Source: Amoebophrya sp. A120 (taxonomy: Eukaryota > Protista > Dinoflagellata). From it: 64,000 nt of DNA. How positions within the stretch are numbered: the stretch's first letter is position 1; each line of letters starts with the position of its first letter. The notes below the pieces were generated by a model. The model saw only the letters and a list, made by a program, of their open reading frames with translations. It was not told the origin of the DNA and did not search any database. Position numbers and translations under genes: made by a program. The stretch covers positions 1,222,709 to 1,286,708 of the forward strand of contig CAJINV010000010.1 in the NCBI GenBank assembly GCA_905178155.1. The letters run 5' to 3'. Positions 16,223 to 42,700 of this stretch are shown here, one piece after another.

Positions 16223-17404
16223 GACAGGACTGGTATGTTAAATTTTGCGATAAAAAGCGCAAGCGCTGGAAGTACTTGGATCTTTAATGCCAGCGACACA
16301 GCACTTTTCACATTTTTTGATTTCTCAAAGCTCAACGCTTTTTCTTTTTTTGCCCCTATCTATTTTTTGCGAATGAAAAAACAACAAACCGACCCTATTT
16401 TCGTACATTATAACCAAAATACAATGAAATTTAATTCCAAATTCATCATGAATCCAATTTTATCAATACTACCGTCTTATTTTCTACTGCTTTAGGAGCA
16501 AGCAGTATTGAGCTACGCTGAAAAACAATTCAAACTAAAGCCAACGACAATAGAATTTACAACCTACATGTACATACGCTGATCTTTATTTCGCAGCTTT
16601 TCAGAAGATGATATTTTTATTTTTTCGTGGCCTCAGGATCGTAGCCATCGTCGTAGCACAAGGAATCTCCGACTCAGTTTCACCTTTTTGCGTGGCCTGT
16701 GTTTATTTTTCGGTGGAAGCAATCTCCACAGGATCACGAAAAAAAGTTTTGCAGCTTATCTTCAAGTACTTATTTCTCGTCGGTGTAAAGAGATACAACA
16801 GGATACCAAAAGAAGGGCATACTAGTCTCAGGGGCCGCGTGGCTTTTCCCACATTTAGGTTCTTTGCTGTTGAAATGGACTTTATGTATCTACGGCAGTT
16901 CTTGTGGTGTTCATACACATTTTAAAGGCGACACCAGAACTTATTTTCTAAAAGCACGACTCCGTGCCCTTTCGAAGATGTCTGTCCGGCAGCGCTGCAA
17001 GAGATCACCCATTCCTAGGTCTTCAGTGACTAATTTTCTCTCCTGAGCTTCTCTCTATGGCATTTTCATTTTCTGAAACACTTTTCCGAAGCTCAAATGG
17101 TATTGAATTGATTTCGGTTACAACACTTACAGCGACAAAGAGGGTCTATCAACAACTAAACGCTGTTTTCGTCTAGACTGTGCTTCTTGTTTGGTTGTTA
17201 GAATTCGAAGCAAATTAACAACCCGTACCGAAACGAGTTAAGTTTACGCAATTTTTGACATTGACTGCAAGGAACGCCATGAGGTTCTAGTTTTTTAGTT
17301 CTAGACAGCAATTCCAGTAGTTGAATAAAGGACCTTTGCAGCGAACAGAATTCCTCTGCAGTTGTATCCAGCTGCACCACAATACCTCGTTGATGGTAAT
17401 CACG

Positions 17405-20400
17405 ATGGCGCCACGCGAGAAGTCGCGAGGCCGCTACCAAATGTAAAAATGTCTGGGTCTGGAAGAATGCAACTTGTAATGCGTATTTCAGAACACAGAA
17501 AAGTCTCTCATGCATACGTAGCAAAAGCTCCCACTTTTTGCCAGCAAAATAGGGGACGTGTCATGCGGATTCGGCATTGCGGAAGGTTCTCGAAACCTGT
17601 GATGCTAGAGCTTCCATGCCAGACCTTCTGTGTCATGCAAAAACAGCATGACTCTTCCAGACCCAGACATTTTTACATTTGATAGCCGCGGCGGCGGCGC
17701 AAAGTCCTCGTCGAAGTCGCGCAGCAAAAGCGGCACTTCCATATCCAATGCAAATATGTCTTTCTCTGGAAGGATGCAAGTTTGCCATGCTTGTCTGGCA
17801 TGACTCATAAATCTGTGATGCAGGAGCAGGAAAAGGGCCTCTTGTCTGTCAAGCAGAAACGCAGTTTGCCATGCGGAAAACGAAACACGACAGCAGCTCA
17901 AAAATTTGTCATGCTGGGCTACATATTGTTATTGCAGTGCGCCCACCAATCACATTTTAGCATCGCAAATTTGTTTCCAGACCCAGACATATTTGCATTT
18001 GATATTCCATGAAGAAGAGCAAGTCGAGCTCGTCCCGGGGGCGAAGCAAAAGCTCGAGCAAAGGCGGGAAAAGCAGCGGAAAATCATCTTCGACAAAAAT
18101 GAAATCTGCCGGTACTAGTGGAACAACTGAAGAAGACACAATCTCCCTCACCACCGCGCCTTTCACGACCTTATACTACTTCGGCTGGTCTTTTTACGAG
18201 TCTTTGGTCTACTACACGGTGGAATTTGTGCAGAGCCAGGCCTTTCTCTTCGCTCTTCTCCCGCTTCTCACCGTCTATTTGGCGACGAAATTTGTCCTGT
18301 TCCCCGAACTCTACACCCCTCCCGGGAAGTGCGGCTCGCGGGCCGCCGCGATGGGAGCTTCAGCGACAGTCGGGGGAACAAAATCAAACACTACAAAATC
18401 CTTCACAACCACCGCAGGACAACCCGATGACTCTGCTTTCGACGGCGGGATTCTGTGGCAGGTGGAGCTGTACACGCTGGAGATTCTGTGGTGGGTGATC
18501 CTGGGCATCCTTTCCTCCGTCGGGTTTGGCACCGGATTACACAGTGGGTTGATGTTCCTGTTTCCGCACATCATGAAGGTGGTCTTTGCGTCGGAGACGT
18601 GCGACTTGTCCGATATGCAGACCATGTATCTCCACCCGTGTAAGTTCGAGTGCGGGAAGCCGTTTAAGGCTGGGCAAGAGTCAACCGCGACTTTGTTCGA
18701 GCTCTGGCTGCGAGTCGTCGTGCCGGTCATGGCCTGGGGTTTCGGTACCGCGGTCGGGGAATTGCCTCCCTACTTCATCAGCCGGCAGGCCAGCATGACG
18801 AAGGGAAAACGGGATGAAGAGTTCGAACGGGAGTTGGAGGTATGTTTTTTTTCCACGGAACTGTCATTTTTTGGTTGAAGATCATTTCAATGCCCCTTGG
18901 CTCTTCATTCCAGTTCCAGTTCCACACCACTACTTACCTTGTGTAGCAGCATGATCATGATCCGAACAATGACAATCCCGACAAGAAGCAGTTCTGTATC
19001 TTCACAGAAAAGCAGCTTCACAAAAACTGGAAAAACCCAGGAATCCCGCGGTGCGACCGATGCGTTTTCGAAGATGAAGATGATGACCATCGATTTCACG
19101 GAGAAATACGGGTTTCTCGGTATCCTATGTAAAAACGTCCCCACCCCATACTCGTAACGCAAATCTGCATGCTAAAATATTTTCTCGTGCGGAGGCCCAT
19201 GAGAAGCGTTTTATAGTCAGGTTTCGGAATTTGTCATGCTCCAATCTTCATGGTGTGCCAGATCTGTGGTGCTGCTGAACTAGCCAAACAGGATTACACT
19301 ACGACGCCAAAGAACCTGTGATGCGCAACAGCCAAAGCTTGTTGATTTGTCTAGCTGATTTGCCATCTTGTTGACTTTGGGGTGGGGACGTTTTTACACA
19401 GGATAGTCGGCGTCTTCCTCCTCGCCTCGTGGCCCAATGCGGCTTTCGACATGTGCGGCATGTGCTGCGGCTACCTGCAGATGCCGTTCTGTATGAACTG
19501 CAAAAGTATCGTACTCGTAGTAATTGCATTTATGCATTACAAAGTTCGTTCCCAAGGTGAATCAGCATGACAAATTCCATTTGTCATGCTGAGGTAATTT
19601 GTGATGGAATTACTACTAGTACGATACTTTTGCACAGGATATTCTGGACCTTTTTCCTCGCAACCGCACTGGGCAAGGGCGTGGTCAAGGTGAATCTCCA
19701 GGCGCTTTTTTTCATCGCGCTGTTCGGCGGCACCTTTTTCAAAATCGTGTTGGTCCCCGTCTCCCGCTTGCTCCAGTCTCTTCTCGGAACTTTGAAGGGT
19801 CTTCTGCCGGACTCGGTGGTGAAGACGGACGTGGCGGCGTTACTGACAAAACAGTATCCTGAATAAAAATTATGTCCCCATCCCAAAGTCAAGTTGGGAA
19901 ATCTGCTAGACAAATCAACCAGCTTTGCTTTTGCGCATGACAAGCTTGTCCTCGTACGTAGTATACTCCTTTCTAACTAGTACTATTTCATGTTGAGCAT
20001 TACAGATCTAGCTTATGACGCTGAAGACTCCAGCATGACAAATTTCAAAACACGAATAGAATGTGCTCCGCACCATAGGTTTGCGCATGAGAAATATTTT
20101 GAGCATGCAGATTTGCATGACAATTATTGGGTGGGGACGATTTTACACAGGATAAACAGCGACAGAAAATCATCTCCAAGTTCGAAAAACAAGCACGCGT
20201 CACCTTCGCCGAAGCCACCGGCGGCGCTGCGCTGCTGACGAAACCGATGTTGTTGAAGCTGTACAAGGGCTTCGAAAAGCCGGAGGGCGTGGTGGAGCGG
20301 ATTCTGGCCTCTTTCGACGCAAACAAGGACGGGAAACTGAGCCAGGCGGAACTTGGGGCGACGATTTCGGGGACCGACGGGAAATTCGCCTTGGGGTCGT

Positions 20401-20546
20401 TGGACCCGGAGGGGGATAGCGACTCCTGGATGAAAATGCTGTGGGATCTGTTTCTCGCGGGGGTGATCGGGTTCTTTTTTTTCAGTATCATTCAGCAGAT
20501 GGCGGCAACCAAGTATGCGGAAGTGACCAGCAAGAAAAAGAAGTAA
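17405..20546 (+). CDS. VMP1: Vacuole membrane protein 1 homologue (VTT/DedA family) with a C-terminal EF-hand; 7 exons, ~555 aa
   Basis: Signature motifs GILSSVGFGTGLHSGLMFLFPHI, WGFGTAVGELPPYFISR, SWPNAAFDMCGMCCG, PFWTFFLATALGK. Removing 5 TIR introns and GT-AG intron 18840-19040 leaves 1,668 nt in frame. An alternative in-frame ATG is at 17393. Confidence 0.9.
17435..17684. mobile_element. Introner-like TIR intron, family A
   Basis: Family A TIRs; direct repeat gccgc/gccgc; frame restored. Confidence 0.9.
17742..18004. mobile_element. Introner-like TIR intron, family A
   Basis: Family A TIRs; direct repeat ttcca/ttcca; removal gives GTSMKKS. Confidence 0.9.
18840..19040 (+). other. Canonical GT-AG intron
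   Basis: gtatgt...cccag, phase 0; joins ERELE to ESRGA. Confidence 0.8.
19121..19405. mobile_element. Introner-like TIR intron, family C (opposite orientation to 14429)
   Basis: tatcctatgtaaaaacgtccccacc / ggtggggacgtttttacacaggata; direct repeat ctcgg/gtcgg. Confidence 0.9.
19492..19641. mobile_element. Introner-like TIR intron, family B
   Basis: Family B TIRs; direct repeat ttctg/ttctg; removal restores the conserved VMP1 motif PFWTFF. Confidence 0.93.
19855..20154. mobile_element. Introner-like TIR intron, family C
   Basis: Family C TIRs; direct repeat aacag/aacag; frame restored. Confidence 0.9.
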
Positions 20547-21785: not shown

Positions 21786-24700
21786 ATGAATAGTGATGAC
21801 GAGTTACTGTCTTCGGATCCTGGCGTATCCTCATCTGTATTATCCGGGGACAACGACAATGGTACCACTACCAAGCAGCAGAATGCAGGCGCATCTTTTC
21901 GGGAACCAGGTAAGAATGATCAAACATTTTCGGACAGTGACGATGAGTTTTGCCAGGCTGATGGGCCTACTCCCGCCAGCTCCGCCGGACGAAAAAACGA
22001 CGAAGAGGACCTGGACGACGGCTTCGACGCGGGGCCGCAGGTTGGTCACTCGAGCAAAATCAAGACACGCGAGGAGAACACCAAAAGAACGACTCAAAGG
22101 ACCACCTCTCTGTCAGACTCAGACAGTGACGAAGAGTTTCTGTGCGAGAAAAATTCATCTATGTTATTGTGGGGTAGCAACGACAACGAGGACGATTCCT
22201 CAGATGTAGTAGGTGCCGACGGCGGTGCGGCTGCTGGAATAGGACAGGAAAGGAGAAACTCTGACTCTGGTGACATAGGCGTGGCCTTGGATAGCGACGA
22301 CGAGTTTGTGCACGGGGATCCTCGTGGATCATCGGTTGAGCACGGGGAAAATCGTGTTATGGATTGTAAAAATGTCTGGGTCTCCTGGAAACTTGTGATG
22401 CTGGGTGGCGTATCATGAGGAGGCCACAAGTGCTGGCTCAGCATGACAAGTCTCTGAGCTTCTATATGATGCCTATTCTGCATGACAAACTGCGTTTTTG
22501 CATGACAGAAAAGCTTAAGATTAAACGCCGAGGCCTCTGGAATGGATGGGCTAAGACAGGGAGTGTATAAAGCCCTCACCGATGAGCAGTATGAGGTGCT
22601 AGCAGAAGTATTCAGCAGATTCCTGCAGGAAGTTGAGGAATATGAGCTGAGACAAAACATGGGGAAAGGGCCAAAACTACTAGAGGAGCGCCTGAATGTG
22701 GTGCAGGTAGAGCTGCTAAAAAAGCAAACAGCAGCAACGACCGCGATAGAAAAAATAAGGACAGTAATACAAGGGACAGCGATTATGGGGGTGCTGATGA
22801 GCGCGGTAGTATATGAGATGGCACGAGTAGCAGACAAAAGCGACGCGCTCACACGATGCGGCTCAGCCTCGAAGCCAGGCGCAAGCTGTCAAGCCACAGC
22901 GCTGCAAGTGCTGGAGACCTGTCACGGGGGAGAAGCACGAGAGAAAGGAGAAGAAGGGAAGAAAGAAGAGAAGGGAAAGAAAGAAGAAAAGACAGCGACA
23001 GTAGTTTTTGGGCTAGATGCATCAAATTACTTCAACAGCATAGGACTCCCCCGAGCGGTGGCAGCCTATAGGGCCGCGAAGCTACACCCGTGCTTTATAA
23101 AACTGATAATAGTAACAGCATGGACAAAAGACCTATGGATTAGAAACGGCGAGCGCTCCGGTCATGTGATAAGACGTCGCGAGCTTATCCAGGGCGCCGT
23201 AGAAACGATGCTCGCGGGGACCCTGATCTTCCTCCCGGGAGTGGAAATTATTGCGGAATTTTTAGAGGAGATTTTTGATGAAAGTGGACGAGTAAACGAG
23301 AGCAGATTGCAGGCAGCAGAGGCGAAAACGAGAACAAGAGGAAAGCGACTATACAAAGGGGGGGATGTCGACACGACGTTCCCGGACTACGACTACAGGA
23401 CAGAAGTGGGCGAAATCTATCACAAAGAAGCCTCGCCGGCGGAAACGGGTTACAGGAGAGGAGAAAAGGCGACAACGGGCAAGGAGAAAGGGGGTAAAGA
23501 CAGGGAGAAGAAAAAAACAGAAACAAGATACTACTCGGGAGTCTTGCGGGGCGTCAGCAATAAAAAGTGGACGCTTTGTGTTCAGTATGTCGATGGCGGC
23601 ACCCTAGTGGTGAAGTTTTACATAGAGGATACAAAACCTATAGTGAGGGCATTAAAAGCAGCAAGCTGGGCATACGAGGAGACTTATGCAACGGAAGGCC
23701 AGTTTTTGGCGCCACAGAAGTGCGAGTTAGCAACATCCATAAGGGACGCGAAACTGGTTAACCTGCTCCGGCAAGCATTCCAGCCTTTCGGAATACTATT
23801 CGAGGAGAAGAGCTTCCTAAAGATTCTGGGCATCAAAATAGTGCCGCAAGACAAAGAAGAGCAGGCGAAAGTCCTGCAGGGGCAGGCGAGGCAAAGTATA
23901 GGGATCGGCCAGCACCTGGCGCGCCAGGTGATGATGCGAAGAAGGGGGCTGAACGGAGAGGAATTGACTTGGGTGGTGCAGGTGTTTTTCGTCTCGGCAA
24001 TGATTTACTATCTTCCAGCAATGCGTCGCTTCTTCGAAATAAAAAAATGGGCAGAATTAATGGGAGAGATGGCGCTGACAATAGCAGAAGCAATGGGGAT
24101 GACAATGGAGGTCGTGGAGGAAATAATGAAAAGAACAGGAACAGAAGCAGAGACGTTTTACAGGGTGATCTTTGGCATGAACATGCTAGGGCTCGCGGAT
24201 CCGTACACGATGGGGCTGAAAACGTTGCGGGCAACAGCGCAGGCCAACTACCTGACGGACCCAAGTATGTTTGCGCCTCTAGCGACGACACCAGTAAAGG
24301 TAGTGGGACAATCGAAAGCGGGTATATCCAAAACAGATGAGCGCCAGATACTGAAAAGAAAAGAAGCAGACATCGCGCTCCTGCAGGCGCTTAGCGACGG
24401 GGCAAAAGTGAGGCTATCGCCTGGGAGCGACTTGCGAGCGTGTGGAATAGTAAAGCAGCGCAGCGCAGTAGGGAAACTGAGGACGGCGAGCCAATATACA
24501 CACCGATCGCACAGAGCCGCCCCCGGCGCCAGGCTCTTTATTTTCGCGCTAATTTTCCTACAGTCGGCGCTCTTGTGGGGGCACTAATTTCTTGTCTAAG
24601 TTTTTGTGTAATTTCTTGTCTAATTTCCTGTCTAAGTTTTTGTTTAAGTTTTTGTCTAATTTCTTGTCTATTTTCCTGTCTATTTTTTTGTCTATTTTCC

Positions 24701-27700
24701 TGTCTATATTCGCGGTCTTTGCCGCCTCTAATTTCTGTCTAAGCAGCGGCCTTGGCCGCTTCGGCTGCTGTCTATTTTTTGTCTAATTTGCCCAGTTGGG
24801 CAATTTGCGTGCGATTTTGCCTATGTCGGCCGTTGCTCTGAAATTTAGGCGCAAACTTAGAAAATTTCGGGACGTGGTCAAGAACGGCTGAAAGGGTTGG
24901 CGGCGCAATTGCTTCGCCACTGCGCCTTTCTGGCGGGTCTTCGGCGATGGGCTCAGGCGTCTGCGTTCTGCAAGTCGCCCGCGCCCCGCCTGTGTCCCCG
25001 GCAAGGGTTGCCCGCCTCGGCCTATTGCCCGGGGCGGGCTTGCTCGCCCAGGCTAGGGCTTGGGCGGTTCAAAAAATAGCGGGAATTTAGGCAGTCGCCC
25101 GCCGGGGCTGGCTCTCCGCGACACCGAGGCGACGCGAGCATTATGGTTGATCGGGAAAGGCAGGGGGGATACGGAAAAAAAGGGAAAGCAGAGAAAAAGC
25201 AAAAAATATGGGTGAAGCATTCGGAAAAGGCGGGCACGACGATAGTAACAATACAAGAGGAAAGCTCGAGAGCCGAGGCACACCTGTGGAAAATAGAAAC
25301 AAAGGGGAGCCACCTGAAATCGGAAGTAAGAGAAGAGGAGAGGAGCTTCGTGGCGTATTGCAGTAATGCAATAAGAACAATCGAGAAGGTGAGGGAGAGA
25401 AGAATAGGCAAACAAGGTAGGACAGAAATAATGCTACTGGACTATGACGAACTAAGGGAAAAGACGAGAGGCCTGCTGCGCAAAGGAAACGGCATAGGGC
25501 TGGAGCTACAAGAAACGATCGAAAAGGCAGAGAGCGCGGATACAGGGCTGACAGTCGAAAAGAGAAGAGGAAACGCAAGGAGGACGGAGGCGAAAAGGGA
25601 TATAGAGAAGGAGATAACGGAACTGATCCCGCTTCGAGTAGCGAATGTGTTGAATCATGATAATGAATGCACGAGCTGGATTCGATTCGATTTTGGGAAA
25701 AAGTGTATAGGGATGGACCCTGTATGGGAGTGGCCGGAAATGTCAAAAATAGAAAGGCAGGCTTATATCCACGCGAAAATATTAGGCGAGAGAAAGAAAG
25801 AAGAGAGAGAAAACGACAACGGAGAAGGTAACAAGGAGAAGGAAAAAGCAGGGGGCGAGGGAATGATGGAAAAAAGGGACAAGAAGAAGGGAAGAGGTGG
25901 AGAAAACGAGAATCGGGCCGCGAACGCGGGAGCGAGTTCAGCCAGCCAGCCGCTGGCAAAAATCGCCCCTAAGATTGCCCTAAGAAAGTTCTAAGTTTGC
26001 GCGCCCCAGTATTGGTAGAAAGATCTCTGAAGGCAATGAAGCTCCTCGATCTTTCTCCTCGTTCTATGATAGTTCCGGTCTTTAGGTTTTGAAATGGATC
26101 GCACAGTGCTGACGAAATTGACGCCCAGTTCTTGGAATTTCTCTCGATCTGTCTCTTATCGCTCTGTTGGAGGGTATCCCGAGGATGTTTTGCAGTTTGA
26201 AGATGTTTATCTTGGTTATCGATTTCCAAATCATTCACTTTTACTCACAGCGACCGGCATATTTTACGGATTTTACTTGCTTATGTTGTTTGTTAGAAGT
26301 CCAGCGCGCATCAGTTTGTTGTCATAGTTTGCATCTCCCCTCAACGTATCTGGTTTTTGGAATTACCTACTCACCCCTTCGACCGCACTACCAGTATCAT
26401 GGAAGACCGTGTGCAAGGTGTTGGCCCCGGTGCACCGCCGGGCGAAATTGTGGCACCGGCGGAAGTTCAGGATCTCTCGGCACTGGAAGCCAAGATGACG
26501 ACGACGACGGATGTTTTGGCCGGTTTTCTGATCCGAACCGGGAAAGTTCGCTTACTTCGCGACATGATCCTGCTGCCCTCGGCGTCCCGCATCAACATGG
26601 GACGGTATGGGAAATTTATGTTGCGGGTCTTTCTCAGTGAAGCGGTTGGGACGGAGAAGGCAGTCTTATCCGAATTGGAAAGCCGGTCTGATGTGGCGAT
26701 CGGGCATGTTTACGAGAGGATCTTCACGCGTTTGAAGTTGGTCCTGCAGACGTGTCAGCGCAACTACATAACCACCTGGCTGCAGATGGTAGCAGGGCGG
26801 CGGCGTGGGCTTGTGAGCCACGTGCAGTTCGATGGGACACCCATCACCTTGCTCCCGAAAGGTGAATTCGTATCCGCCGACTCACTAGGAGTTTCGCAGT
26901 GTATTATCTCACCGCGGGAAGGGAGTGGCATTTTTTATTTGGTTTTGTTCTTTGTGTGTCGTAGATTTTCTAGTTTGCCAATGTTCATCCCAGCGCCCTC
27001 TTGTATATCTTATTCGCATGTCAAAACAGGTACTTTCGCGAGCCACGTCAGCAGCACCACCGAGATCGGCGTGGGTGGGGTTGAGCAGAATCGATGTTGG
27101 AACTCGCCGGATTGTGTGCATATGGTCGACGGGAAGCGCGACGTTTATGCAGAGAAAACACATGCTGCCACGCCACTAGTACTAGCGCATGAGATGCATT
27201 GGGAGCGTTATTTGAGGCGCCGGCGATTGTGCATGGCCTGCCTGTGGTGTGTCCGTGTTTTCTTTGCATACCGCGCAGGAGTACATGGAAATTCACAAGC
27301 GGACGACGAACGTGCGGTCCGAAGCCAAGAAGAAAACCCCTGGGGGCAAAGTCGGGCTCACCATGAGCCACTATGTGTCCGATGGTGGAGCGCTCGGGGT
27401 GGTGCGGAAGTATTGCGGCCTCCGGCACATGTCCTGCGGATTGGATGGTGGCCCAGCCACGGCTTTGGAGGCCCTGCATGACCTCCATGTCATGGATTCG
27501 TGTGTGTTGCATGGAACCCACGGGGCCGGCGAAGATGGTGCGCAGCGGGTAGATTTATTGGCTTCCGAGGCGCATTTAGATGACATCAAGCGGATTGCCA
27601 ATGGCCTGCGAAAGTCCTTCGGCGGTCTGCGGGAGGAGTTGTGCGATTGGGTCGACAGGAACTATGCCGGGGGGAAAAAATTGCAAGACTCGACCGACTA

Positions 27701-30700
27701 CGACGACTTGATGGATTGGATCAACCCCGGAAGCGACAAGCTCGTGGAAGAAATCAAAGAGCAGGAGCTTCGCTTCGTAGGGGGGAAATTGTTGGGAACC
27801 ATCCCACGCACGGAGAAGGGCGTGCTGGTCTTCATCGCCTCGCTGTTGTGCAGGATCTCGATCCGCGCATTCCAGTTCGGGCGGTTTGGCAATGGATTGG
27901 ACCCGGCCCGACGTGTGGTTCTGGCGGATGTCTGTGGGTTACTGCATTTTGCCGAATATGCGAAGCGTGTCGCGAAGCGGAAGTTCTTCCTCCAGCAGGC
28001 TTTTACAACCACGAAGCTGCGCTACAAACAGTTTCCCGTCGCGGCCTGGAGTTTGGTCACCTTCTTGCCCCCCATTGAGCGCTGCGAAAAGTCTCTGTTG
28101 AAGGGCGAGACGGTGGATGATGTTGTGCAGATTCGCAACCAGTTCCGGGCCGATGTTGCCGTGGTCCGGCGGCAAAATCTGCGAAAACTCTGGGCCTTTT
28201 CCCCCAGTATGACTGAAGCTGATCGGGAGACGTACATCAGTGCCAGCCTAGACGCTCTGTCGACCGCTGCTGCTTCTCAGGAGCTTTTAGCCTTTCGCCG
28301 CCTGGATTTGCCGCCCTACAGCATTGTTCTCCAGAAGCCCCGAACCCTCGACGCGATCTTGGACCGCATCAGCAACACCTCTGAGGATTGTCTCGACGCG
28401 GGATTCTGCGGGAAGTTAAAGAAGTTGCAGCACTACTCCCCTGGCAGCATCAACGACAGCAAGCAGTCGCTGTGTGACATTGTGCAAATTCTTCTCACTT
28501 TACCACAGACGATCATCATTCGGGAGCGCGCGCACAAAAGCGGACACCGGCACACAAAGTCGGCGAAGAGTTTCAGCAAGGTGAACGAGATACAGTTCGT
28601 CGAGCAGTATGTTGAGCAAAATCATCTGCTTGAAACCTGTCCCGGGAAAGCTCTAGCCGCAATGGGGAAGTCTTTGGACACTTTGCGAAAGGAGTCGGGC
28701 GCGAACATGGTGCGGAAGTCGGGAATGTTTTTGAAGGAGAAAGCCGGTGGCCAGGGGCACAGCTACGAAGACATGCGGGACACGGTGGCGAAGGAAACAA
28801 ACAAGACGTTTCAGCAACTGGCCAAGGCTGGCCAAGTGGAGTACCTGCAGCCGATGGTAGAAGAGCAGCAAAAGAAGTTACTGGAGAAAGCCGAGACCCG
28901 GCATGAGCAGCAGCTCGCGAAGTCGTACAAATTTCAGGACAAGGTGGCCCGGCGCCGATGCTTTGTCACGGGAACAAACTCGCACGACCTCGATGGCCTT
29001 ATCACGGAGAAAACTTTCTTGGATGAGTGGGGGAAGCTGCGCGTGGATTCTTCCAAGGCCGCGCTCCACGCGTGTGCCCAGGATTTCGACGCGAAGTTCG
29101 CGGAGCTTTTGGATAAGACGATGCTGCGGCTCCCAAGCCGTTCTCCGTATCTGGAGCATTGGGATGATTTGCAGGGAAATGTTGCGGAGATCGTGCGGAG
29201 CCACAAGCGGTGTCGGGACAAATTGGGCGCGGTCATCGTTGTGAAGTCGGAGGAACTGCTCGAGGATGATGATTTGGAGCTGGCGTGCTTCGAAGTAAGC
29301 TTCATCAGCCTGCAGCCGTACATATTGGGAATGGAGTACCTCCGCCCAGTCGACATCTCTATGGTCCCGGGTGGCAAACCTGGTCGGAAGACCTTCTTCG
29401 AGCGCACTGGGATTTTTCGCTACATTACCAAGCTGCTAGGCGATGTCTTTATCGTCGCGCGCGAGAACGTCACCTCCCACGGGGGAAAGTTCCTCGAGGT
29501 TCCGGGGAAGGCGACCTACTTCTTCATCGACAGGTGCGACACGTTTGAAAAGCTGCTTCCGGGCTCCTTGTTGGAGAGGGGGAAAAAGCAGAAGGCGGGC
29601 GAGGTTGAGGAGGACGAGGGGGAAGGCCGCTCCGCCGCTCTCAACAACTACAAAAAGCGGAAGGCTGGGAAGGTGATTAGCGTCGCAGAACTGCGGAAGA
29701 CAATGGACGGCGAGCGGCTGGCCAAGTTGGAGACCTGTTTCACGGACCTGCAGAAGGTTCGCGAAGAGGCGGCACAGAAATCAGCAGCAACTGCCGACCC
29801 CTTGCACAATACTGATATTAATCTAACAATTTCCGGCGGGGCCTGGGTCATGGCGAATCACAACAAAGCGAGTGACAAGCTCGAGATGAAGGTCAAGGAC
29901 AAACGCCTCTTTGCGGTCTGTGATCGGCTGAAGCTGAAGCGGGTGCGGGATTTTCGTCATGCTATGTGGGGAGACGATGAGAACCGGTCAGAAGAATCAG
30001 CTCGGAGTGTTAGAAACCTCTACCGCTTCTTCTTCCAGTCTGGTGCCCAACTTCCGGGCACAGCTGACACCTGCCCCGATCATACTAAAATCTGTCGCGC
30101 ACAAATCCAAAATGATCACAAGCCGGCGATTGCAAAACAAAGCAACTATCTCAAGGATCGCAAACAGTTCTTCTGCCACAGACGCGACGTCTTCTATAGT
30201 CATTTGATCGATCTGATCGACAACTGCGTCTACCGTCTCCCGGTCGACTCGGACGAGCAAGACGCGCTCGCGGTCGACACCATGAACATACAAGACGATG
30301 ATCTGTAAACCGTGCAAACCATTGGTCTGAACTTGCAAGAAGTCATAGCGAAATAACTCAAGCGCAAAGAGTGTAGCTCGTGTCGAGTCTCGAGCCCGAT
30401 CCTTTTCTGTTCTCAGCGTGTCGCGGTGCCTGATGGTCTTGATTGATGCAAAAAATTGACGCTGAAGATGATGTTGTCCACCCAGATGAACACAAATCAA
30501 AATCTCTTCTGGTTCTGTGCGCCTGAGCTTGTAACGTCGGGCCCCGACTTGTTAATTCCTAAACACACATAATTTTTTGCGACAGGGACTCTCATTCTGT
30601 TCTAGACGCTCTTGCAGCATCTGACAAAGCAGTCTTTGCAAGTTATACCGACCAACGGTTTACCACTGCATATCCTGGACTGCCCCGCGCTTCCTCGATA

Positions 30701-33700
30701 CCCATAAAGGATGTCTTCTGATCTCGAGAACAAAAACCCGGCCTCCGCTGCCACTTCTGTGGTTGGAAACGCGGAAACCAAGGCAGCTGCTGCCGGTGCT
30801 GCTTCGGCGAAGCAGGCTTCCCCCAAGGTCAAGGCGAAGAAGAAATCCCAGAACAAGGCGGCGAAGAAATCTTCCAAGAAGAAGACTTCCCCCTCGACCC
30901 TTGTTGTTCAGGTACTACGCTGTTTTTCGTAGGTATTCTACTTGCCTTGGATTGCTAATTTGTTAACTAATTTCGCGGATAACCCCTCGGCTAAATCGAT
31001 GCCTAATTTTGCGACTAATTGCTGGATAATTTTTTGAGGGGGACCTATTCCGTATTTGTGAAGGCAGTTTAGACACAGATTAGACGGATATTTAGACACG
31101 AAATTAGATGGCCCTCGCGTCATGTAGTTGGGCCTTTCGCTCCCCTTCCCCGAATTGGGGCGCTCGCGTTTCTTGCCTCCCTGGAGCGGGAACTTTTCGC
31201 CAGCCCCCGGCTGGCGAAAATCCCCACTGGAAATACAATTTGTGTTGAATTTCCAATGGGGATTTTCACCAGCCGGGGAGTTTTTCGATTGGAAATTCGA
31301 AAAGTTTTGAACTTTTAACTTTTGTCGAGCGGGAACTGGGACTTTGTACTTCCAAAGTTCCAGTTCCCGCTCGACAAAAGTGGGGAATGATGTGAAAGGA
31401 TTTCTCTTTCAAAAATGTTGAAAGACGAGAAATCCTTTCGCATCTTTCTCCACTTTTGTCGAGCGGGAACTGGAACTTTGGAATTCCAAAGTTCCAGTTC
31501 CCGCTCGACAAAAGTGTGCTTTCGCCAGCTCCCGGCTGGCGAAAATCCCCATTGGAAATTCAACACAGTTTGTATTTCCACTGGGGATTTTCGCCAGCCG
31601 GGGGCTGGCGAAAGCATTTTCACCAGCCCCCGGCTGGTGAAAATCCCCATTGGAAATTCAAAACGTTTTGAATTTCCAATGGGGATCTTCGCCACTCGGG
31701 GAGTTTTTCGATTGGAAATTCGACAAGTTTTGAACTTCCAACTTTTGTCGAGCGGGAACTGGAACTTTGGATTTCCAAAGTTCCAGTTCCCGCTCGACAA
31801 AAGTGGGGAATGATGTGAAAGGATTTCTCTTTCAAAAATGTTGAAAGACGAGAAATCCTTTCACATCTTTCTCCACTTTTGTCGAGCGGGAACTGGAACT
31901 TTGGAATTCCAAAGTTCCAGTTCCCGCTCGACAAAAGTGGAGAAAGATTTGAAGTTTTGGACTTCCAGTCCTTTCTTTCGCCAGCCCTCGGCTGGCGAAA
32001 GCACTTTCGCCGAGAAGTCGTTGGTGAAAGTCCCGATTGGAAATTCAAAAAGCTTTGAGGTTCCAGTCGGGACTTTCGCCAAAGACTCGTTTGCGAAAGA
32101 GGAAAACACAGGGAAAAGCCGCATACCATCCGCGGAGCAACGACTCTCTCTTGTTGCGGGGCGGCTTTTTCAACATGTTTTGTGGGAGGGTTTTGCTTTT
32201 CTAGTCTCCCTCGAGCGGGAACTGGAACTTTCGAGTTGCGAAAACTCGAAAGTTCCAGTTCCCGCTCCGGTGGGAGGAAGAAAACTGGTTGCGAAAGGAA
32301 CGACGTGTGCAGATTTTGTCACATGCAGCATCTGAATTTCCACAATTAAAGAGCTTGTTTATTCATGAAAAATCTTCTCTCAGGCGCCTACCCTGACCAA
32401 GAAACAGAAGGCGGCGGCCAAACGCAAGCAGCGGCAGGCGGCCAAGAGCATCCTCGAGCAGCAGACTTCGGACGCCCTGCCGGAGAAACTCGTGGGCCAC
32501 GCCTTCAAGATGGCGCGTAAGTTGAACACCAACAAGCGTTGGAAATTCAAAAAGAGCGTGATCAAGTCCGCCTGCTGGGAGGGAAACAGAACCACCGCGG
32601 AGTACATCGCTACGGAATACATTCCCGCGTTGCGGGCTGAGGCCAAAAAGAAGAAATTGGACAAGGGGGCGGACACGAAGTATTGGATTTTGAAGCCTGA
32701 GTGGGAAAAGGCCATCCTGGCCAAGTGGACGGAGGAGCGGGAGGAGCAGGCACAGCAGGTTCGTGGACGGGTCCGCCCGTCCATCCTCCGCATCTTCAAC
32801 GACTCCCTGTACCCGACCGCGCATCTGAAGCATAAAGCGGCGCTTGCGTGGCTCCACCGCCACGCGCAGCAGGTGAAGAAATCCTTCCCCCGGTGGTTGG
32901 AAATGACCGTGAACGCGGCGGCGTCGAGCTCCACCTCCGCCCCGCAGCAGACCGTGAGAATGTACGAGGCCACTACCGATCCGCTGGACAACACGTACGG
33001 CTTCGGGCGTACTGATTTCGAGCGTGCGCTCGACCTGGCTTCGACCGGAACGGGGCAGAACTCCGGGTCTACGCCTGTCACTGCTTCGAAGAACTCCTTG
33101 TTCGCTGCGAGTGAAAGCGTGAATCTGAAATCGCCCGGGAATGAACAGACCAAACTCGATTCCACGGTCAAAACCACCCCGCCGCCGAAGCCCTTCGCGA
33201 CGGCCGGCTCCGCTGGTCCGTTGACCAGCAGCTCTGCCCCGTCCGTGTCCAACACTGTTTCGCCCGTGAACGACGACCCGCTGCTGAACAACCCGACGAA
33301 GCGTGATGGAAAGCGGCCGTCGGATGCGGAGGATGAGCTGTTGCATCGTGCGAAAAGATCCCGGAGTGCCCTGCTCCAGGCGCGGCGCACGGGCCGTGGC
33401 GCGAGGGCCCGGGCCGCAGAGGAGGACTCTGCCGCGGATGAGAAGTACGGGCTGAACGCCACCGAGATCGGCGACGTAAACTCCGGGATTTTGCAGATCA
33501 TCTGCCAGAAGGACGCGGAGCTGGGCCGTCGCGACGACCGTGGCCTCGAGGCCCTGGCCGCCTATGTGGAGGCTTCGCAAGGTAAATGCTTACTCCTCTT
33601 TCCAAACCACAAGCTGCTTCATGCTTTTTGCAAACCTAGAAGGCCTTTTTTTTGTTGTCAAACATAGACAAACGGAGAGCAGCGGCAAGTGTCCATCTCA

Positions 33701-36700
33701 TCCACAAATCATCAGGCGGACACCTGCCGCCGGATTTTCCCGCTTAAATCAGGCTAAAAAATTGCTAAAAGCAAAAGACTAGGCCCCCGGCGGCGTTTCG
33801 TCAGTGCGCGCGCCGGGCCCTGGCTTTGTCCCATGCCTTGCGCCGTGGCCGCGCAGGCATTGGGGCGGCCACCTAGCATCCCCCGGGCTTTGTTTGCCCT
33901 CCCTCTTTCAGTTTTGCTCGTCGGTGGCGTTTGGGTTCTCCCTGTGGGGTTTCTGCGTTCTCATGGCTCGGCCGGGGCGTCGCCAAAGCAGTCCAGTTCC
34001 ATCCTTTGGGGCCGCCGCTACGTCCGTTTCATGGCGGATCGCCAGCAGCGGCATTTGCCAGCCGCCCGGAGCAAGGAAAGTGCTCCAAGCAGGACAGCGC
34101 CTGGGTGAGGCCCGGGGCGACCCTCTTTGGCGGGGGAGACGTCGTCTGGGGTGAAGGTGTTTGTTGTTCTGCTCGGGTTGTTTTCTTGCTTCGGACGGCA
34201 AGGTTGCGGCTCCTCCGGAAAGGGCCGGAGTTGGGTCCGGAGTTGGTAATTTTCGGCACTGCTAAAATCGGGATTTGGACTGCTAAAACGATTGCTAATT
34301 TGAATGCTAAAATGGCTGACCCTTGAAAATCGGAACGATTTTCAAGTTTTGGCATTTTAGCACAAAATTAGCAATTTTTTAGCAGACACTTTAGCACGGA
34401 TTTTAGCAGACGAAAACTGCCGCGGCGGGATGTGGTTCCAGGGGATTTAGCAGTGAATTAGCACTGAATTAGCAGACTTTTAGCAGAATTTTAGCAGACC
34501 GGCCGCCCCCCCAACATCTTGTGAAACGGGGGGAATCGTTGGCGTTGGAGGGGCGATCGCAGGGTCGGGCGTTCGGGAAGGTTCTATGGGAAGAACCGCT
34601 GCTCAAGTCTGACTGGTCATTCGGGGCGCGAATTGGTGGCGCGCAAGTCCGCCGTCGGGGAGGTGTTTCGGTTTCTCCCGCCCCAGCCCGTCGTCCTTCC
34701 GCCGGCCGGCGCGCTTGCGAGGCCCGCAAGGGGGCCGGCGCGCAAGTAGGCCTGGCCGGGTTTTTCTGAAGGGGCGCCTGCCGTCGCCTCCTTCTTCCGC
34801 CTCGCCTGTCTTCGGGCCCGGGGCAAGGCGGTCGTCTTCCCTTTTTCCCGGTTGTCGCGCGTGCTTCCCCTGTTGCTTTGGGGAAAAAAATTTTTTAGCA
34901 CTTTTTCAGCAGCTTTTTAACGAAAAAGCCCGGCGCCCTTTGTCCGCCTGAAAATCAAAACGACACAGACTCCAACGTGGACCAGGACGCCGTGGAGTCC
35001 GGTCGCGAGGCGGGCATTACCCTCCTGGAGAAGCGTTACGACGTCGGCGTTCGCTCCCCGGAAGATTTCCGCGAGGAGTATGATGCGTTTTTTGTTGTTA
35101 AAGTTCTTCTTCATCTTGATCGGTAAGTATTACGCGTTGCTCGCAGATTATAAATCAATCCGCTAGGTGGGTTGAAATATGGGCGCCCAACACTCCCAGT
35201 CCGCGCGCAAGCGTTGTCTAGAGGTGTTGACCTGGTCGCGAAATACAAACAACCCCCAGGCCCAGCGGTAGCACTTCTGTTCGATGCAGAGTGTGAGTCT
35301 TGCTTCTAGATGCGCATCAATCCACACACTCAGGTATTACGACGCGATCTCCATCCTCTGCCCCAATCTGCGCCGCGTGTACCTGTTCACGAAGAAAAAC
35401 AGCACCGGGACTCTTGCTTTTGAATGTGAAACGGACGAAGTCGAGCAGCTGTTGGACGACATCGAGACCTGCGAGATGCCGATGTTCGCGGAGACGAAGA
35501 AGGCATTGTTGCTTGCCCGCGAGCGGAGTGAGTGCGTTGAGCGCATTGGATGGGTAAGATTATTTTCTATCTCCGGCGCATTGGTCACCTGCTTCATGTG
35601 CTTGGTCTGCTTGCATTTCTTCCCGCCAGCAATGAGGACCACTGCTCTTCCCTCAACAAAAGCGAACAGGTCTTTCGTGATTATGATCCCCTGCAGCTGA
35701 ACTTCAACGAGATTGAGCAGAAGGAAGGACAGATCACGACACAGCTGGAACAGTTGTTGACTGACGCGAAGGGTGGGGACTACGCTGTGGACTTCTGGAA
35801 AGCCCTCGCGGATGCCATTCCCGACACAGTGGAAAACTGGACCCCGCGTTATTTCTACCGCCGCTACGTTGATGTGGCGGAGCATTCGACCTCCAATTCC
35901 GGCATCAAACACCTGACCGAAATCGAGAAGCAGCGGAAACATGTTGAGAAGGAGTTGGGCAAGATCTTTACCCCTGGCCAAACGACCGTGTATAGTTCAT
36001 CCCTATCTACTTCTTTTTAGCATTTAGCGATGCCCAATGTGCGACCTGTTTCTTTGAAAAGTGTTGGTATTTTGCATGACAAATTCCGGAGCGCCCATCC
36101 AAATGACCAAAAACGTCTCAGGTTCCAGCTCGTCCGCGGGATGAAGAATCTGCCGGAGTGTCTCGTCTGGGAGCGGATGGAATATGAGAAGGTCTGCCAG
36201 GATATCAACCAATACAACGAGAACCTGCTGGCGCGGGAGGCGCTGTTGGGGTTGGTGCACAACGACTTTCACGAATGGGCTGACGGTAATTCGCACTACG
36301 ACGCGGTGAAGGACGCCATCGAGGCGGGCCTCGCGTTGACTTACCCGGTCCGGAAGAAGCATTTCTTGACCGGAAAGGAAAAGGAGAGGGACGTGTGGAA
36401 ATATTACACCAAGTACATTCTGAAAAAGGCGGAGCGCGACCAGATGACGCCGCAGAAGATCACGCAGTATCTCAAGAAATTGGAAGAACTGGAGGAAGAG
36501 CTGCGCCATGGGGTGCAGGATGGTACTTGGTTGCAATTTCATGTTTATGTTGTCAATTTTGAAAAACACTTAACTGAGAGATGCGACGCGCAGTCGCAAG
36601 CTTTTCGAGCACACTCCTCGGTCCATGGTTGAACTACTTGAAGATATCACCCGCTCAAATGAACACGCACAGTTGTCGAGCATTGCTCCAAGATTTTGGA

Positions 36701-39700
36701 CAAGTTGAACTGGGTGGACGTTCTGTTGTCTGACATGAACTACAAAACCTACAAACGGTACGCCGACATGGTCGCGCAATCGCAGAACAAGGCGAAGGAG
36801 TTGGAAAAACAGAACCAGGACGAAGTCAAGGCGTTGGACCGCTTCACGGCGTAGGAGGCGGAACGGCAGAAGCAGCTGACGATGAGACGAAGACTCTTTC
36901 CTATGAGGCTGTCGAGTGGTTGTGATGCACCACAGACAGCGGTAACAAGAATCACAGACAACAAACTAATATTGCGCTGAACTTCGACTATCGTTGTTGC
37001 ATGGACGATTTTGCACCTCTGTACCTGCAACACAAATTGCGCCCCACCCGAACAGAACATAATGAAACCGTACTCAAAAAAGGAAGTAGTGCAGGTGCTT
37101 GGCTGCGGCCTTCTCCCCAAACGGCATCGGCGCCTGTTCTCATTTCTTTGGTTCTTGTTTTTTCTTCCTTCCCTTCGCTCTTCTTGTCCCTGGCCCAATG
37201 GGGCCTACAACTTGGTTGCTTCCGCACTTGTGGCGGGGCAGCACACCACCTGGCGGCGCAAGTGCTTCTGTGGCCGCCCGGTGCTCTCGACCCACCCACC
37301 CACCGCCCACAGGCATTGGGGCGGGTGGCCAACAGTAGGCGCGCAAAAAATTAGGGAAAATTCAGAATTTTTTAAGCCGGGGCGAATGCCCGGGCCCGGC
37401 AGACTGAGCGAGTTCGTCGGGGAGCAGCCAGGTAAATGCAAGAGGAAAACAGAAAAGAAAAAAAGAAGAAAGAGAAGAAAAATCGGACGAAACCCTTTCA
37501 GAAACGATTCTCAGATTGATAGAAAAAGAGAAGAAGACAGCGGATCAAGGAGGGGAGGAGATGAAGCAGAGGGCTCGGGGAATAATAGAGAAGGCGACGC
37601 GACTCTTGAAAGAGGCCGAGGGATTGGACCACGACCGGGGAGAAGAGAAGAGCACAGGAATGGAAATTGATGGAGACGTAGAAAGCGCAGACGAGGGTGG
37701 AGAAATGGAAGTCGAAACGAAAAAAGAATCGGACGGGGGAGGCGAATTCTACAAGGCAGATACATACGAAGGCACACGGCGCGGATACGTTTTCAAATTA
37801 GGGAAAGCGGGGCAAGGGTATTACAAGGACAGGGGACCTGAGGAAGCCACCCGCGTCTTCTTTAGCTGCTGCGTAGGCTGGGGGGAGGATGAAAAAAGGG
37901 AGGAAGCAAGAAGAAAGAGAGCAGAGCTGGCCCCAGACCCACAAATAGAAGAGGCGTCACTAAAAAGGCAACACAGAAAAGACGAAGAGGCGACTATCAC
38001 AACAAAAAATGACGAGCGAGGAGAGGCCAACCCGTCTCCTGGGCGGCAAGGTACCGACCGACCGGGAGAAAAGGAAGAAAGAAAAAAAGAAGAAAAAAAA
38101 TTTCCGACACTGGAGGAACTACTGGGCGACGACTTTGAAACAAAGGAAGAGGAAGAGCAACAGCAAGAAGAAAGACGAAAGAGAGAGGAGGAGAGGAAAA
38201 GGAGGAGGCAGGCGAAATATGAAACCCCTCTGCAAGAAGAACTGGCGAAAATGTTCAGGAGTTTAGACGAAGAAGTTAGAAGATAGGTAGTACAGTCGAG
38301 GTTGATGCGATGAGAACTCATACAATGAACACAGTGAAGGCATGTTGCGCAAATTTAATACGTTGAGGAAACACATAAAAAAAAACTGTAAGGGAAAGGG
38401 TGGGCCGCTCTCGAAGCAAAAAAAATAAACGAGGTGGGGGGTGTTCTGGCGGATGCGGAGGGAGGAGTGGAAACGGAGAGAGTATATACGAAAAAGCGAA
38501 ATAATTCGTAAAAGATGGCACCAACGTCCCGCGCGTCTCATCTCGTCCCCGCCAGCCCAGGAGGCACGGCGCTGCTTGTCATCTCGTCCACGCTGGCCGC
38601 TTAACTGCGGCCCGGCGCTGCTATCCCGCTGTAGAGAGCTAGTCGAAAAGAGGAAAATATATCAAAGTGGTGACAGGGTTGTTATTTTAAAAGTCTGTGC
38701 TAAAGCAGCACCCCCCTCCCCAAGGGGCCCCCTCGGGGCGGGCGCGATGGCGGCTCTGAGTAGCCGGAGCCCTGGGGCCCGATTCTTCGAATACGCATGA
38801 AAAAGGTGCGCGGACTAAGGTCGGCTGAAGTGCTCGAAAGGGGTACGCTTCGGGGTTGTCCGTCATCGTAGTAGGATCATCGGGTATGATCGATAGACCC
38901 CCAGTATACGTACTAGCGCACAGCCGGCCACAGACGTAAGTTTGCGATCAAGTTTGTAAGGCTAACCCATCAAGGCCACGCCGAGTCTCCACCTTGCTCG
39001 CGGGCTTGGATGGTAAGGGGGTTCTGCCACAAGTAGCGCCCACTGGTTGTTGTTACGCGTAAGCAATCGATAACGGTTCTGCGGCTGCGGCCGGGTGGTA
39101 GTTAGGAAGTGGATCGGGTATCCACCTAGGGGTATTGGCAGAGGCTAAATCTGTTCTAGCGCCCAGGTATTGGCAGAGGCTAAATCTGTTCTAACGCCAA
39201 CCCGCCAGGAGTTAAATGGTTACTACTACTACTACTGCATGACAGAAAAGCTGGGCTCTTGAGTAACGTGCATGACAGATTTAAGAGTCATGCCAGACAA
39301 GCATGACAAACTTGCATTCGTCCAGACCCAGACATTTTTACAGTTGATACGTGTCGTGGTAGATCCAGGCACCGGTCCTCAGAAGTGTGGCAAAGATCGG
39401 GAAAGAGCGACGCCGAGGCGAAGCAAGAAAATCTGTGACAGCGATGTTGAGCTTTGTTTTGGACACGTCATTGATGTCAAGACGGCCCCGGGAGCCGCTG
39501 GGACGGCGACCGGGGAAGTACACGTGGCTTGTCGCGCACCAGTGGCAGCTCTTTCCGGCGAGCGGGAAAGGACAGATGGGCGACTGGGACGGCCTGCAGT
39601 ACAGGACAGCAGGCCTAGTACTTGCGAGCGAAGTGAAGACGCCCTAGCCCTACAGGAAAAAAATGCAGGAGCGCAATCTCCGGCAGCCTGCACAGTGGGA

Positions 39701-42700
39701 CGTGAAGCAGTCCTCGAGAAGGCTCAGCAGGCTCCAACGCTAAGTACCTCTCCCTGCGTTTATTTTCCTCCACAACGGCGAGATCAGCCGCAACATCATA
39801 ATCATGCGGCTTCTGTCCCGCCCAAGATGTTGCGCTGTCTCGAATGCGGAGAGGAAAAGCCAAGCAGTTGTTTTCCGGCGACATCAGCGGGCAAGAACGA
39901 GAAAGACACGCCGGGAGTAAAAAACAGCGTAGCCCGTGGGGGTGCTTCCTCGACGACGGGCACAGGTAATCTTAGCGCGAATGAGCAGCAGGAAGCTGTC
40001 GGTCTGGACAACTATGATACTGCTGCAGCAGGAGCAGCGACAGGGCCTAAATTAAAGGATGATCAGAGCATTGGCACATCAACATCGAGTTCGAGATTGC
40101 TTGTCTGTCACTTTTGTGCGCAGTATGGGAGATCGAGGTTGGCGAATCTGGTGCCAGCAAAGGTGCCGTTTTCTGATTTGTTGCGACAAAATGAAACTAC
40201 TAAGGATGGATCTTCGGAAGACCAGCAAGGTTGTCGCGGAAACAATTCATCATCTGCAGACGCGCAGGAGCGCACAGGGGGCAGCAGCAACAGGCGCAGC
40301 TATATGGACGTTTACATTCTGGACGACGAGGAAGTTGAAACACAGGGCCACACACTAACCACCAACAGCATGGCGCCTCCACAGCACTTGCAACTTGGTG
40401 CTGTCTTGCATAATTCCACAGCGCCTCTAATATCGTCTTCTGACACCGCCGCCCGAAATTCTACCTCGAGGATAAAAATCGACGAAAAGAACGGCGACTC
40501 CTACCTCTTGCCACCCGGCTCTGCGACGCGAAACTGCCATCCCCACGAGTTGGCCTTGAGGAAACTCTATCAAATGCAAATATGTCTGGGTCTGGAAGGA
40601 TGCGAACTTGTGATGCGTGTTGCGGATCATCCAAAAATCTGTGTTGCGTGACTTGCAAAAGGTCCCCACTTCTGGCCGTTCTGAGGGGGCATTTCTCATG
40701 CGGAATAGGCATCACCAAGGGGCTGCAGAACCTGTGATGCCAGCCCCTGCATTCCAGACTTGGCGGAGCTTGGAAAAACTGCATGACAAATCTCGCAATC
40801 TTCCAGACCCAGACACTTTTGCATTTGATAAGCTCGCAGTAACTGATTTTCATCACATGAAGCTACCGCCGCGGCTGGAAGTGGATGATTTGCTCGATCT
40901 GTCAGAGAAGCCGTTTCTTCCCGAAGCCCGGATGAATAAGAAGGAGATTGATGTTGGTAATGCTCCTGGACCTGGTGGAAATAAAATATCAAACCAAAAT
41001 AGAGTCCCCAACCCCAACTACGACGAAAAACTGGCAAAAACGCTCGAATCCGACGACTACTGCCAGGATCTCGGGCGCTTTGTCGTTCGGAATCCGCGAG
41101 TCGAAAACAACGCAGATTTCCTCCGCATGAAGCGGTTTAAGCAAAACTTACTTCAGAAGGATACCGAGGACAAGGACCTCGCGACGAATTCCCATTTTGC
41201 TGGTCCGCTCGGCAACCCGTGGACGAACCGAGGCTTACAGTTGATTCCGGTGAACGCGAAATTTTGGCTGCTGAAGGAACAGGCCTGGCTCTACAGCAAG
41301 GGCGTTTGCTTGCCTTTCATGGAGAGAACCACGGAGGTTTTCCCCTTTGTGGAAGACATCGACTTGACAAATTGTCAGTGTACCTGGGAAAACAGTGTCC
41401 CCAACGCGGTGAAGTTTTTCCTACAACCGAAAGACTCCCGGAACCCCCGGTATGCGAAGAAGTACCCAGACTTATCATTCAGTTATCAAATGCAAAAATG
41501 TCTGGGTCTGGAAGGTTGGAACTTGTGATGCTATTTTTGGAATCTAAAAAAATCTCTATTGCATGACCAGCAAGAGGAGTCTAGTTTGTGCTACGCGGGG
41601 AGGGCGTTTGTCATGCGGAGTAGGCATCAGGAAGCCCTCTAAAAATCTGCGACGCTAGGCCGTGCATTACAGACATCCTGGGTCATGCAAAAATATGCGT
41701 GACAAATCTCAGAATCTTCCAGACCCAGACACTTTTGCATTTGATATCAGTCAGGAACAAACCAAACTCTTCTTCAACCTGGCCGACAAAAAGTTTCTGC
41801 AGAAGCGGGCCCGAATCCTCGGGCGCATGTTTCCGGGCAAGAAGTTGGAGTGCGTCGTGTTCTCCTCCTCGGGGTGGTCTATATGCATTGCAAAAGTATT
41901 TGACTTACTCGTAGTATTGCAATACAAATTGGCTCAGCATGACAAACGGAACGTCTCATGCTGATTTAACTTGAAAATTGAAATTTGTCTTGCATGACTG
42001 TAATTCCTACGAGTACGATACTTTTGCACAGGATGGTCTACGGAGAAGCACAAAATGAAGATTTCGCTACACCTGGTCTGGCCACACTTGCTGGTGAACC
42101 GGGAGATTTGCGCGCAGGTCCGGGCGGAAACTCTAAGGTATTTCCGGTCAAACCGGGGACGCATGTATCAGGAAGAGTTGAAAAAGCTGGGGAATACTGG
42201 TACTGCTGTGGTTACCGTATCCATACCGGAGTGCTTGAAATTGCTAAATAGCGGCGTGTTTGACCACAAATTGGTCGCGAAAACCTGCGTTGTGCGGAAC
42301 GGGGCGGTGGTCGTTTCGAAAGTTTTTACCAGCTTGACTGAGAGCGAAAGGCAAGTCGGAGATCTGTACTTCGAAAAAGGGTGGAAAGTAGCGAAAGTGG
42401 TGCTGTTGCGAGGAGGAGGAGACGGATCGTCATCGTCCACGACCACTTCTGTTGTCCACACGGTGCAGGAAGCTCTGCGAAAAATCGAGGAAAACGTGAT
42501 CGAACTGAAGCGGCGAGGACGGGGAAAATTGAGTTGCCAGCGCCCCTCATCCGATAAGAATTCGGTCACGTCAGAAATAAACGGTACAGCAGTACGTCCC
42601 GCTGAAGACAACAAACAGAACCTCACCAAAAAATTCGAGCGCCTCGAAATCCACTTTGAGACAGATTTTTGGGCGGACATTTTTGACGATGTGATTGAGA

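Follow-up and report, generated by a model that had tools for sequence, protein, structure and literature searches.

We analyzed a stretch of 64,000 nucleotides from Amoebophrya sp. A120 (contig CAJINV010000010.1, positions 1,222,709 to 1,286,708 of the forward strand), referred to below as the window. It contains a host gene whose first modeled intron spans 17 kb. This intron is an introner, a non-canonical intron made by a transposon and bounded by terminal inverted repeats (TIRs), and it holds a long interspersed nuclear element (LINE 1). LINE 1 is itself split by a miniature inverted-repeat transposable element (MITE) and by an 11.5-kb DNA transposon with CAG ends, and each insert is flanked by a target site duplication (TSD). 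A second introner of the same gene contains another element of this kind (LINE 2). The layers are arranged as follows.

21786–63177, plus strand: host gene, 15 exons, a single stop-free frame of 3,937 amino acids once 14 TIR elements are taken out
21786–22357, plus strand: host exon 1, low complexity, with the left repeat CGTGT (22353–22357) as its 3′ end
22358–22515, no strand: left introner arm, TIR starting with TAT, finishing with the first copy of the LINE 1 TSD (22500–22515)
22516–24506, plus strand: LINE 1, putative reverse transcriptase (RT) region, 5′-truncated, with homology to LINE 2 and a PF00078 match below the cut-off (E = 0.16)
24507–25121, no strand: MITE, 615 bp, non-coding; its TIRs are imperfect and it includes a 12-bp tandem array
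25128–25938, plus strand: middle piece of LINE 1, in frame when the inserts are peeled away
25939–37406, plus strand: CAG...CTG DNA transposon, 11,468 bp, with the 8-bp TSD AGCGAGTT at 25931–25938 and 37407–37414
37415–39236, plus strand: 3′ piece of LINE 1 with the end of its open reading frame (ORF), the 3′ untranslated region and a (TAC)n tail
39237–39349, no strand: second copy of the LINE 1 TSD (39237–39252) and right introner arm
39350–40567, plus strand: right repeat CGTGT (39350–39354) and host exon 2
48389–57881, plus strand: second loaded introner of the host gene, 9,493 bp, with the exact repeat CGAGT, holding LINE 2

The left TIR of the outer introner begins at 22358 and the right TIR finishes at 39349, with CGTGT repeated exactly on both sides, as described in the first-pass annotation of the window. 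The TIR score of 49 lies above the shuffle maximum of 30, and between 18004 and 40568 there are no other ends of this family. Without its cargo the introner measures 255 bp and is 88% identical to an intact copy at 4992, which corresponds to a 67-fold expansion; the annotation (about 270 bp, 60-fold) had the right order of size, if not the exact values. The window contains 16 short copies of the same family, and a strict scan returned 29 TA...TA inverted-repeat elements (100–420 bp, 5-bp repeats) versus one to four in three shuffles. Two features of A120-type introners were found: inverted ends that start with TAT and extend up to an A-run, and border repeats of 3–5 nt (CGTGT and CGAGT, both exact).

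In our model of the host frame each of the 14 TIR elements is excised together with one copy of its 5-bp repeat, and all 14 modeled introns are such elements. The border repeats are exact in nine of them, differ by one mismatch in four and by two in the remaining one. The resulting frame of 3,937 residues is stop-free through both giant introns; the other two frames of the joined exons contain 140 and 182 stops, and in 13 of the 15 exons the model frame is the sole open one. Without splicing, the frame hits a stop after 210 residues. The exons total 11.8 kb and show no lesion and no cargo insertion, while the introner sequence, 3.5 kb, houses both LINEs. Exons 1 and 2 are of low complexity; further downstream the protein contains motifs which, judged by eye, we take to be primase-polymerase (AEP)-like. 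The host protein had no Pfam match. Protein searches (one restricted to 250–2000 residues) returned no relatives, and hence no ortholog across the junction. None of the six unspliced window ORFs looked up in the protein collection was present there.

Peeling off the layers restores both the LINE and the host ORF, in agreement with the annotation. After removal of the MITE and the CAG-ended element, each with one target repeat, LINE 1 is stop-free over 1,223 residues, and after removal of the whole introner the host reads ENRV-VVDPG across the junction. The 16-bp TSD of LINE 1, GCATGACAGAAAAGCT, is present at 22500–22515 and 39237–39252, and the (TAC)n tail precedes the second copy, both as previously noted. 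A simple-repeat 3′ tail, a TSD of variable length, 5′ truncation and the absence of long terminal repeats (LTRs) are all hallmarks of a LINE and are seen here. Motifs recognized by eye are presumably those of an RT. LINE 1 is 38% identical to LINE 2 over 662 residues (E = 5e-144); the homology begins at residue 608 of LINE 2, and LINE 1 is without an APE endonuclease. The MITE is flanked by CACCGA at 24501–24506 and 25122–25127 (6 bp, although a 7-bp reading is also possible) and has a TIR score of 40 versus a shuffle maximum of 27; no second copy was found among the window self-matches listed. Its 6-bp duplication had been recognized correctly but its place had not, since it lies in LINE 1 beside the CAG-ended element and not inside the latter. 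The chance for two random positions in the span to share a 16-mer is 2.4e-6, and 3.4e-5 for an 8-mer.

The second loaded introner measures 265 bp when emptied, is 84% like intact copies and has been expanded 36-fold. LINE 2, which belongs to a different family from LINE 1, contains a putative endonuclease and RT ORF (51860–55864) and a (CCAA)n tail; the endonuclease match to PF14529 (E = 0.0013) is below the cut-off. No TSD was found for LINE 2, and a few target bases were apparently lost at the junction. Two introners of other families (11938–12969 and 14429–15533) contain related inserts of about 0.9 kb, which are 87% alike over 300 bp and comprise CCCTCTCGCG arrays and, close to the right end, a short hairpin. 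These inserts, for which neither a TIR nor a clear TSD was seen, are possibly Helitron-like.

The CAG-ended element within LINE 1 carries two genes, the second of which contains further elements in its introns:

26399–30308, plus strand: gene 1, candidate hAT-like transposase of about 1,220 residues, two introns, approximate ends
30711–36854, plus strand: gene 2, unknown protein; the best of 16 combinations gives a model of 902 residues and six GT-AG introns
31194–32088, no strand: palindrome (foldback-like) array within intron 1 of gene 2 (30912–32383)
33713–34950, no strand: inner CAG-ended non-autonomous element, 1,238 bp, within intron 2 of gene 2 (33582–34968)

The 8-bp TSD and the CAG ends of the large element are present as the annotation had noted, and so are the palindrome array and the second CAG-ended element in the introns of gene 2. 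The large element has the weakest TIR of the nest (score 30 versus a shuffle maximum of 26), and a 10-bp reading of its target repeat, which gives AG..CT ends, is possible as well. For the inner element the TIR score is 55 versus a shuffle maximum of 27, and its flanking repeat is imperfect.

The putative transposase encoded by gene 1 has an aspartate at 26831 (FDG), a second one at 27371 (xxDG), a CxxH motif at 27501–27512, an RxG motif and a glutamate at 28524 (ERxH). The order D, D, CxxH, R, E is that of hAT and related transposases, and it was also found in all four full-length relatives checked. Seven relatives were obtained (E from 9e-89 to 4e-11), five of them labelled Amoebophrya A25 or AT5.2. 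A single-sequence search of the word-indexed set returned nothing, and a profile search added just one weak match. The protein had no sequence match in Pfam or the PDB, and none to a hAT transposase family. For a model of one relative, P0008 (pLDDT 54), Foldseek matched the Hermes transposase with E = 0.2 and a probability of 0.57 (at most 0.14 for the other rows shown). In VIA the same model matched Hermes with Z-scores of 6.1 (158 aligned residues) and 5.7 (195 aligned, the longest), with ABC transporters scoring higher (7.6). The alignment with Z = 5.7 places residues 197–534 of the model on Hermes 264–571 and presumably runs, in each of the two proteins, from the CxxH motif to the final E. 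A full-length P0001 model gave no Hermes match in Foldseek.

The element shares with hAT transposons (Hermes, PDB entries 4d1q and 6dwz) the 8-bp TSD, the CAG ends, the D..D..CxxH..R..E order and possibly a large helical insertion domain. It differs by the lack of a sequence hit, a candidate transposase of about 1,220 residues with a long C-terminal extension, a size of 11.5 kb with a second, intron-rich gene, and weak TIRs. A TSD of 8 bp is usual for hAT elements according to the text of PMC12730594. The annotation had called the element hAT-like. This remains the best reading, based on the motifs, the 8-bp repeat, the CAG ends and the sub-threshold Hermes match, but with no significant sequence or fold hit its membership is unproven. 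The element is probably not the mover of the introners, because its 8-bp/CAG signature does not match their 5-bp/TA signature. Farhat et al. (PMC7789003) report no transposase for A120 from Repbase domain searches; a protein as divergent as that of gene 1 could escape such searches. At 9914–19556 of contig L001 a relative of the candidate transposase, of metagenomic origin, precedes three ORFs that are collinear with gene 2 and weakly resemble it, as well as an 11-bp inverted tandem array. Three hand-picked comparisons of gene 2 with these ORFs gave E = 0.026, E = 0.016 and no match, and tblastn recovered none of them; no TIR/TSD pair was found around the relative's gene, whose region reaches the contig end. 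The layout suggests a shared two-gene arrangement, which we regard as a lead only.

Some further observations concern the introners of the window. For the introner at 57945–58208 the repeat GGTCC yields spliced ends GT..AG; in the same register the 17-kb intron would have GT..AC and the 9.5-kb intron GA..AC. An element at 43213–43840 is longer than the other introners (628 bp) and has TA...TA ends, the exact repeat CTCCG and an internal palindrome; the flanking exon sequence is partly duplicated (about 42880–43160 and 43845–43990). The cargo spans 22516–37406 and 48610–57837 contain no introner of the scanned types, whereas the host genes are full of them. Two upstream genes on the same strand (1–11300 and 17380–20545), for a long surface-type protein with cysteine repeats and for a membrane protein, are both riddled with introners.

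Transcription was assessed over 39240–59200 with contigs of the runs X4 and X6, which derive from one sample and are probably RNA (their nature was guessed). They match the exons on either side of the second giant intron without a single difference at a depth of 2–6, and they skip three short introners of the host gene (47660>47820, 57939>58209 and 58723>58989). The long ORF of LINE 2 has near-zero depth. In the X4 joint 57939>58209 the shorter side comprises 58 letters, a number that equals the distance back to 57882; at this base the repeat behind the 9.5-kb intron starts, and a spliced form of this intron would begin there; as the side is unassigned, we take this as a hint only. Joints at 39349>41507 and 48607/48609>57838 were considered as traces of an empty allele and rejected as cross-mapping of other family copies; they have short sides, intervening letters and 12 differences in the listed piece. 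No exon was covered by the raw RNA runs X7 and X8, which hit introner look-alikes alone and are uninformative.

Established for this locus are the boundaries of the nest, five in all, the recovery of the LINE frame and the host frame, and another case of 9.5 kb in the same gene; the insertions are sequential and precise, leaving both introner arms whole. We infer their order from whose frame or arms each insert splits. The history that we favor, with some reservation, is that a TIR introner took in a LINE and then the MITE and the hAT-like transposon, and that its untouched ends still pair and mark the 17 kb as one intron. An Amoebophrya-type TIR introner would first have inserted into a host exon. 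LINE 1 would then have landed in the introner, and the MITE and the 11.5-kb transposon in LINE 1. In the pre-mRNA the inverted ends of about 26 nt would pair and juxtapose both CGTGT repeats, as proposed for short copies, and a cut at the repeats would remove the 17 kb and restore the host frame. The GT-AG introns of the cargo genes would be removed either on their own or together with the outer intron. A hairpin that joins exons has been proposed for short A120 introners (PMC7789003, legend to Fig. 4), and annotated A120 introns reach 35,152 bp (Table 1 of the same paper).

That the 17-kb intron is still spliced seems probable to us, on the indirect grounds of exons free of lesions and insertions over 11.8 kb, the downstream expression, the length of annotated A120 introns and the multi-kb A120 families of Dataset S2 described below. 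We hold its removal by its own ends to be somewhat less assured but still the better guess; the 9.5-kb introner likely still splices out as well. Several points weigh against this interpretation. That the frame is intact says little about its use, because any precise insertion restores the frame, and the perfect TSDs together with the open LINE frame indicate a young nest. All cargo genes are oriented in the host sense and could end the transcript early. Among the joints listed for X4 and X6 there is none over 48388/57887, among the loose ends listed none lies at 39350–39355, and exon 2 is almost without depth (0.05 and 0.35). Finally, the cognate end is top-ranked outright in just 2 of 18 introner pairings.

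The strongest alternative, which we consider unlikely on the whole but by no means negligible, is that the nest broke the gene: transcripts of exon 1 would end in the sense cargo, the downstream exons would depend on a new start or on trans-splicing for their expression, and the open frame would merely reflect youth. The stop after 210 residues in the unspliced frame fits such a scenario, as does the lack of an RNA piece for exon 2 among those listed while later exons are covered. A shortened protein might suffice, with the first two exons of low complexity and the motifs that we take, by eye, for AEP-like lying downstream. However, the depth of 2–6 is patchy and the transcript would measure about 12 kb, so that missing 5′ coverage is uninformative, and 11.8 kb of exon without a lesion, with both LINEs outside the exons, weigh against this alternative. 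If the gene had already been dead, the second LINE would have landed in an introner with a probability of about 0.23 (uniform landing, hand arithmetic).

It is less likely still that the intron is removed stepwise or by other ends, either through recursive use of splice sites in the cargo or by joining the left end to the right end of the next introner with exon 2 skipped. With the cut placed one base inside the left repeat, the donor would read GT; the cargo has at least eight GT-AG introns, and the ends of the family cross-pair about as well as the cognate ones. The ends of the outer introner can nevertheless still pair (-36.4 kcal/mol); the cognate right end ranks second of 18, the only better one lies upstream, and the 5-bp repeat is common to the cognate pair only. 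Cognate end-pairing as a rule for choosing the partner found no support. With the cognate end the outright best in no more than 2 of 18 cases, pairing cannot select the partner alone, and the shared repeat or the order of transcription may matter as well. An assembly artefact that joined repeats is highly improbable despite the repetitive makeup of the span, as a misjoin would not produce four target repeats that are both exact and nested, nor the recovery of two frames.

The annotation had further regarded introners as safe harbours for mobile cargo. All four primary cargo insertions in the window lie inside introners, with p about 0.005 for uniform landing and about 0.25 for landing in non-coding space; introners make up about 70% of the local non-coding space, and these statistics are rough, with intervals picked by eye. 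The four loaded introners fit the idea of a safe harbour, but they are indistinguishable from survival in the largest neutral compartment (p about 0.25). Cargo would gather in introners mainly because insertions survive there and not in exons. The landing site of either LINE is GCATG, which recurs in introners; the two LINEs belong to different families, and two events prove nothing. A bolder view, which we find doubtful, would hold that the ends are blind to length, that introners serve as landing pads within genes, that LINEs prefer GCATG(ACA), that published retrotransposon introners are nests and that a two-gene hAT-like family has been overlooked. That an element may favor another one as its target is known from Tx1, which inserts into Tx1d (PMC6719617), and the secondary landing of transposable elements in existing introns is named as a confounder in passages of PMC9860276 and PMC12130899.

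The A120 introners described in PMC7789003 resemble those studied here in their inverted ends starting with TAT and followed by an A-run, their border repeat of 3–5 nt, their length of about 240–260 bp and their non-canonical ends. As characterized there they are short, transposase-free and MITE-like, whereas two copies here carry 9–17 kb of coding cargo; the word "nested" is absent from the main text of that paper. Gozashti et al. (PMC12130899) include A120 introner families that have TIRs, protein hits to retroelements and coordinates of several kb. In the 50 of 58 A120 rows covered from their Dataset S2, short-TIR families have LINE protein hits and coordinates of 7 kb (fam6, fam16), and fam135 has four members at 18.8 kb; we read these values as columns of an alignment, by which intron lengths are overstated. 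Family 38, labelled Ginger, has the TA/TA ends and 5-bp TSD found here. In that study, some families are attributed to retrotransposons (non-LTR or LTR) as makers of introns, whereas here the LINEs landed in a pre-existing TIR introner. The published A120 retrotransposon introner families may be nests of this type.

Insertion of Tx1 LINEs into Tx1d, as described by Cosby et al. 2019 (PMC6719617), likewise places a LINE, endonuclease-bearing there and probably so in LINE 2, in a TIR DNA element; Tx1 is sequence-targeted according to that description, and the element landed in here serves at the same time as a host-gene intron. Growth of introns by mobile elements is shared with ordinary secondary insertion (as treated in PMC9860276 and PMC12130899), but the recipient here is itself an intron of the non-canonical kind, made by a transposon and proposed to be removed through end-pairing. 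Neither LINE-in-introner nests nor an Amoebophrya hAT element was described in the accessible text of the literature searched, including PMC7789003, PMC12130899, PMC9860276, PMC12166617 and PMC11282704.

Each part of the nest is known in kind; new are the second loaded introner in the same gene and the frame of 3,937 residues over 14 introners. According to the text of PMC7789003, non-canonical introns of Amoebophrya are removed without detectable U1, and end-pairing is merely proposed. Two expansions, of 36- and 67-fold, occur naturally within a single gene and enclose canonical introns, which opens the reach of end-pairing to testing. Nests of this kind offer a simpler reading of the "retrotransposon introners" of Amoebophrya, and gene 1 provides a transposase candidate in a type of genome for which none was reported in PMC7789003.

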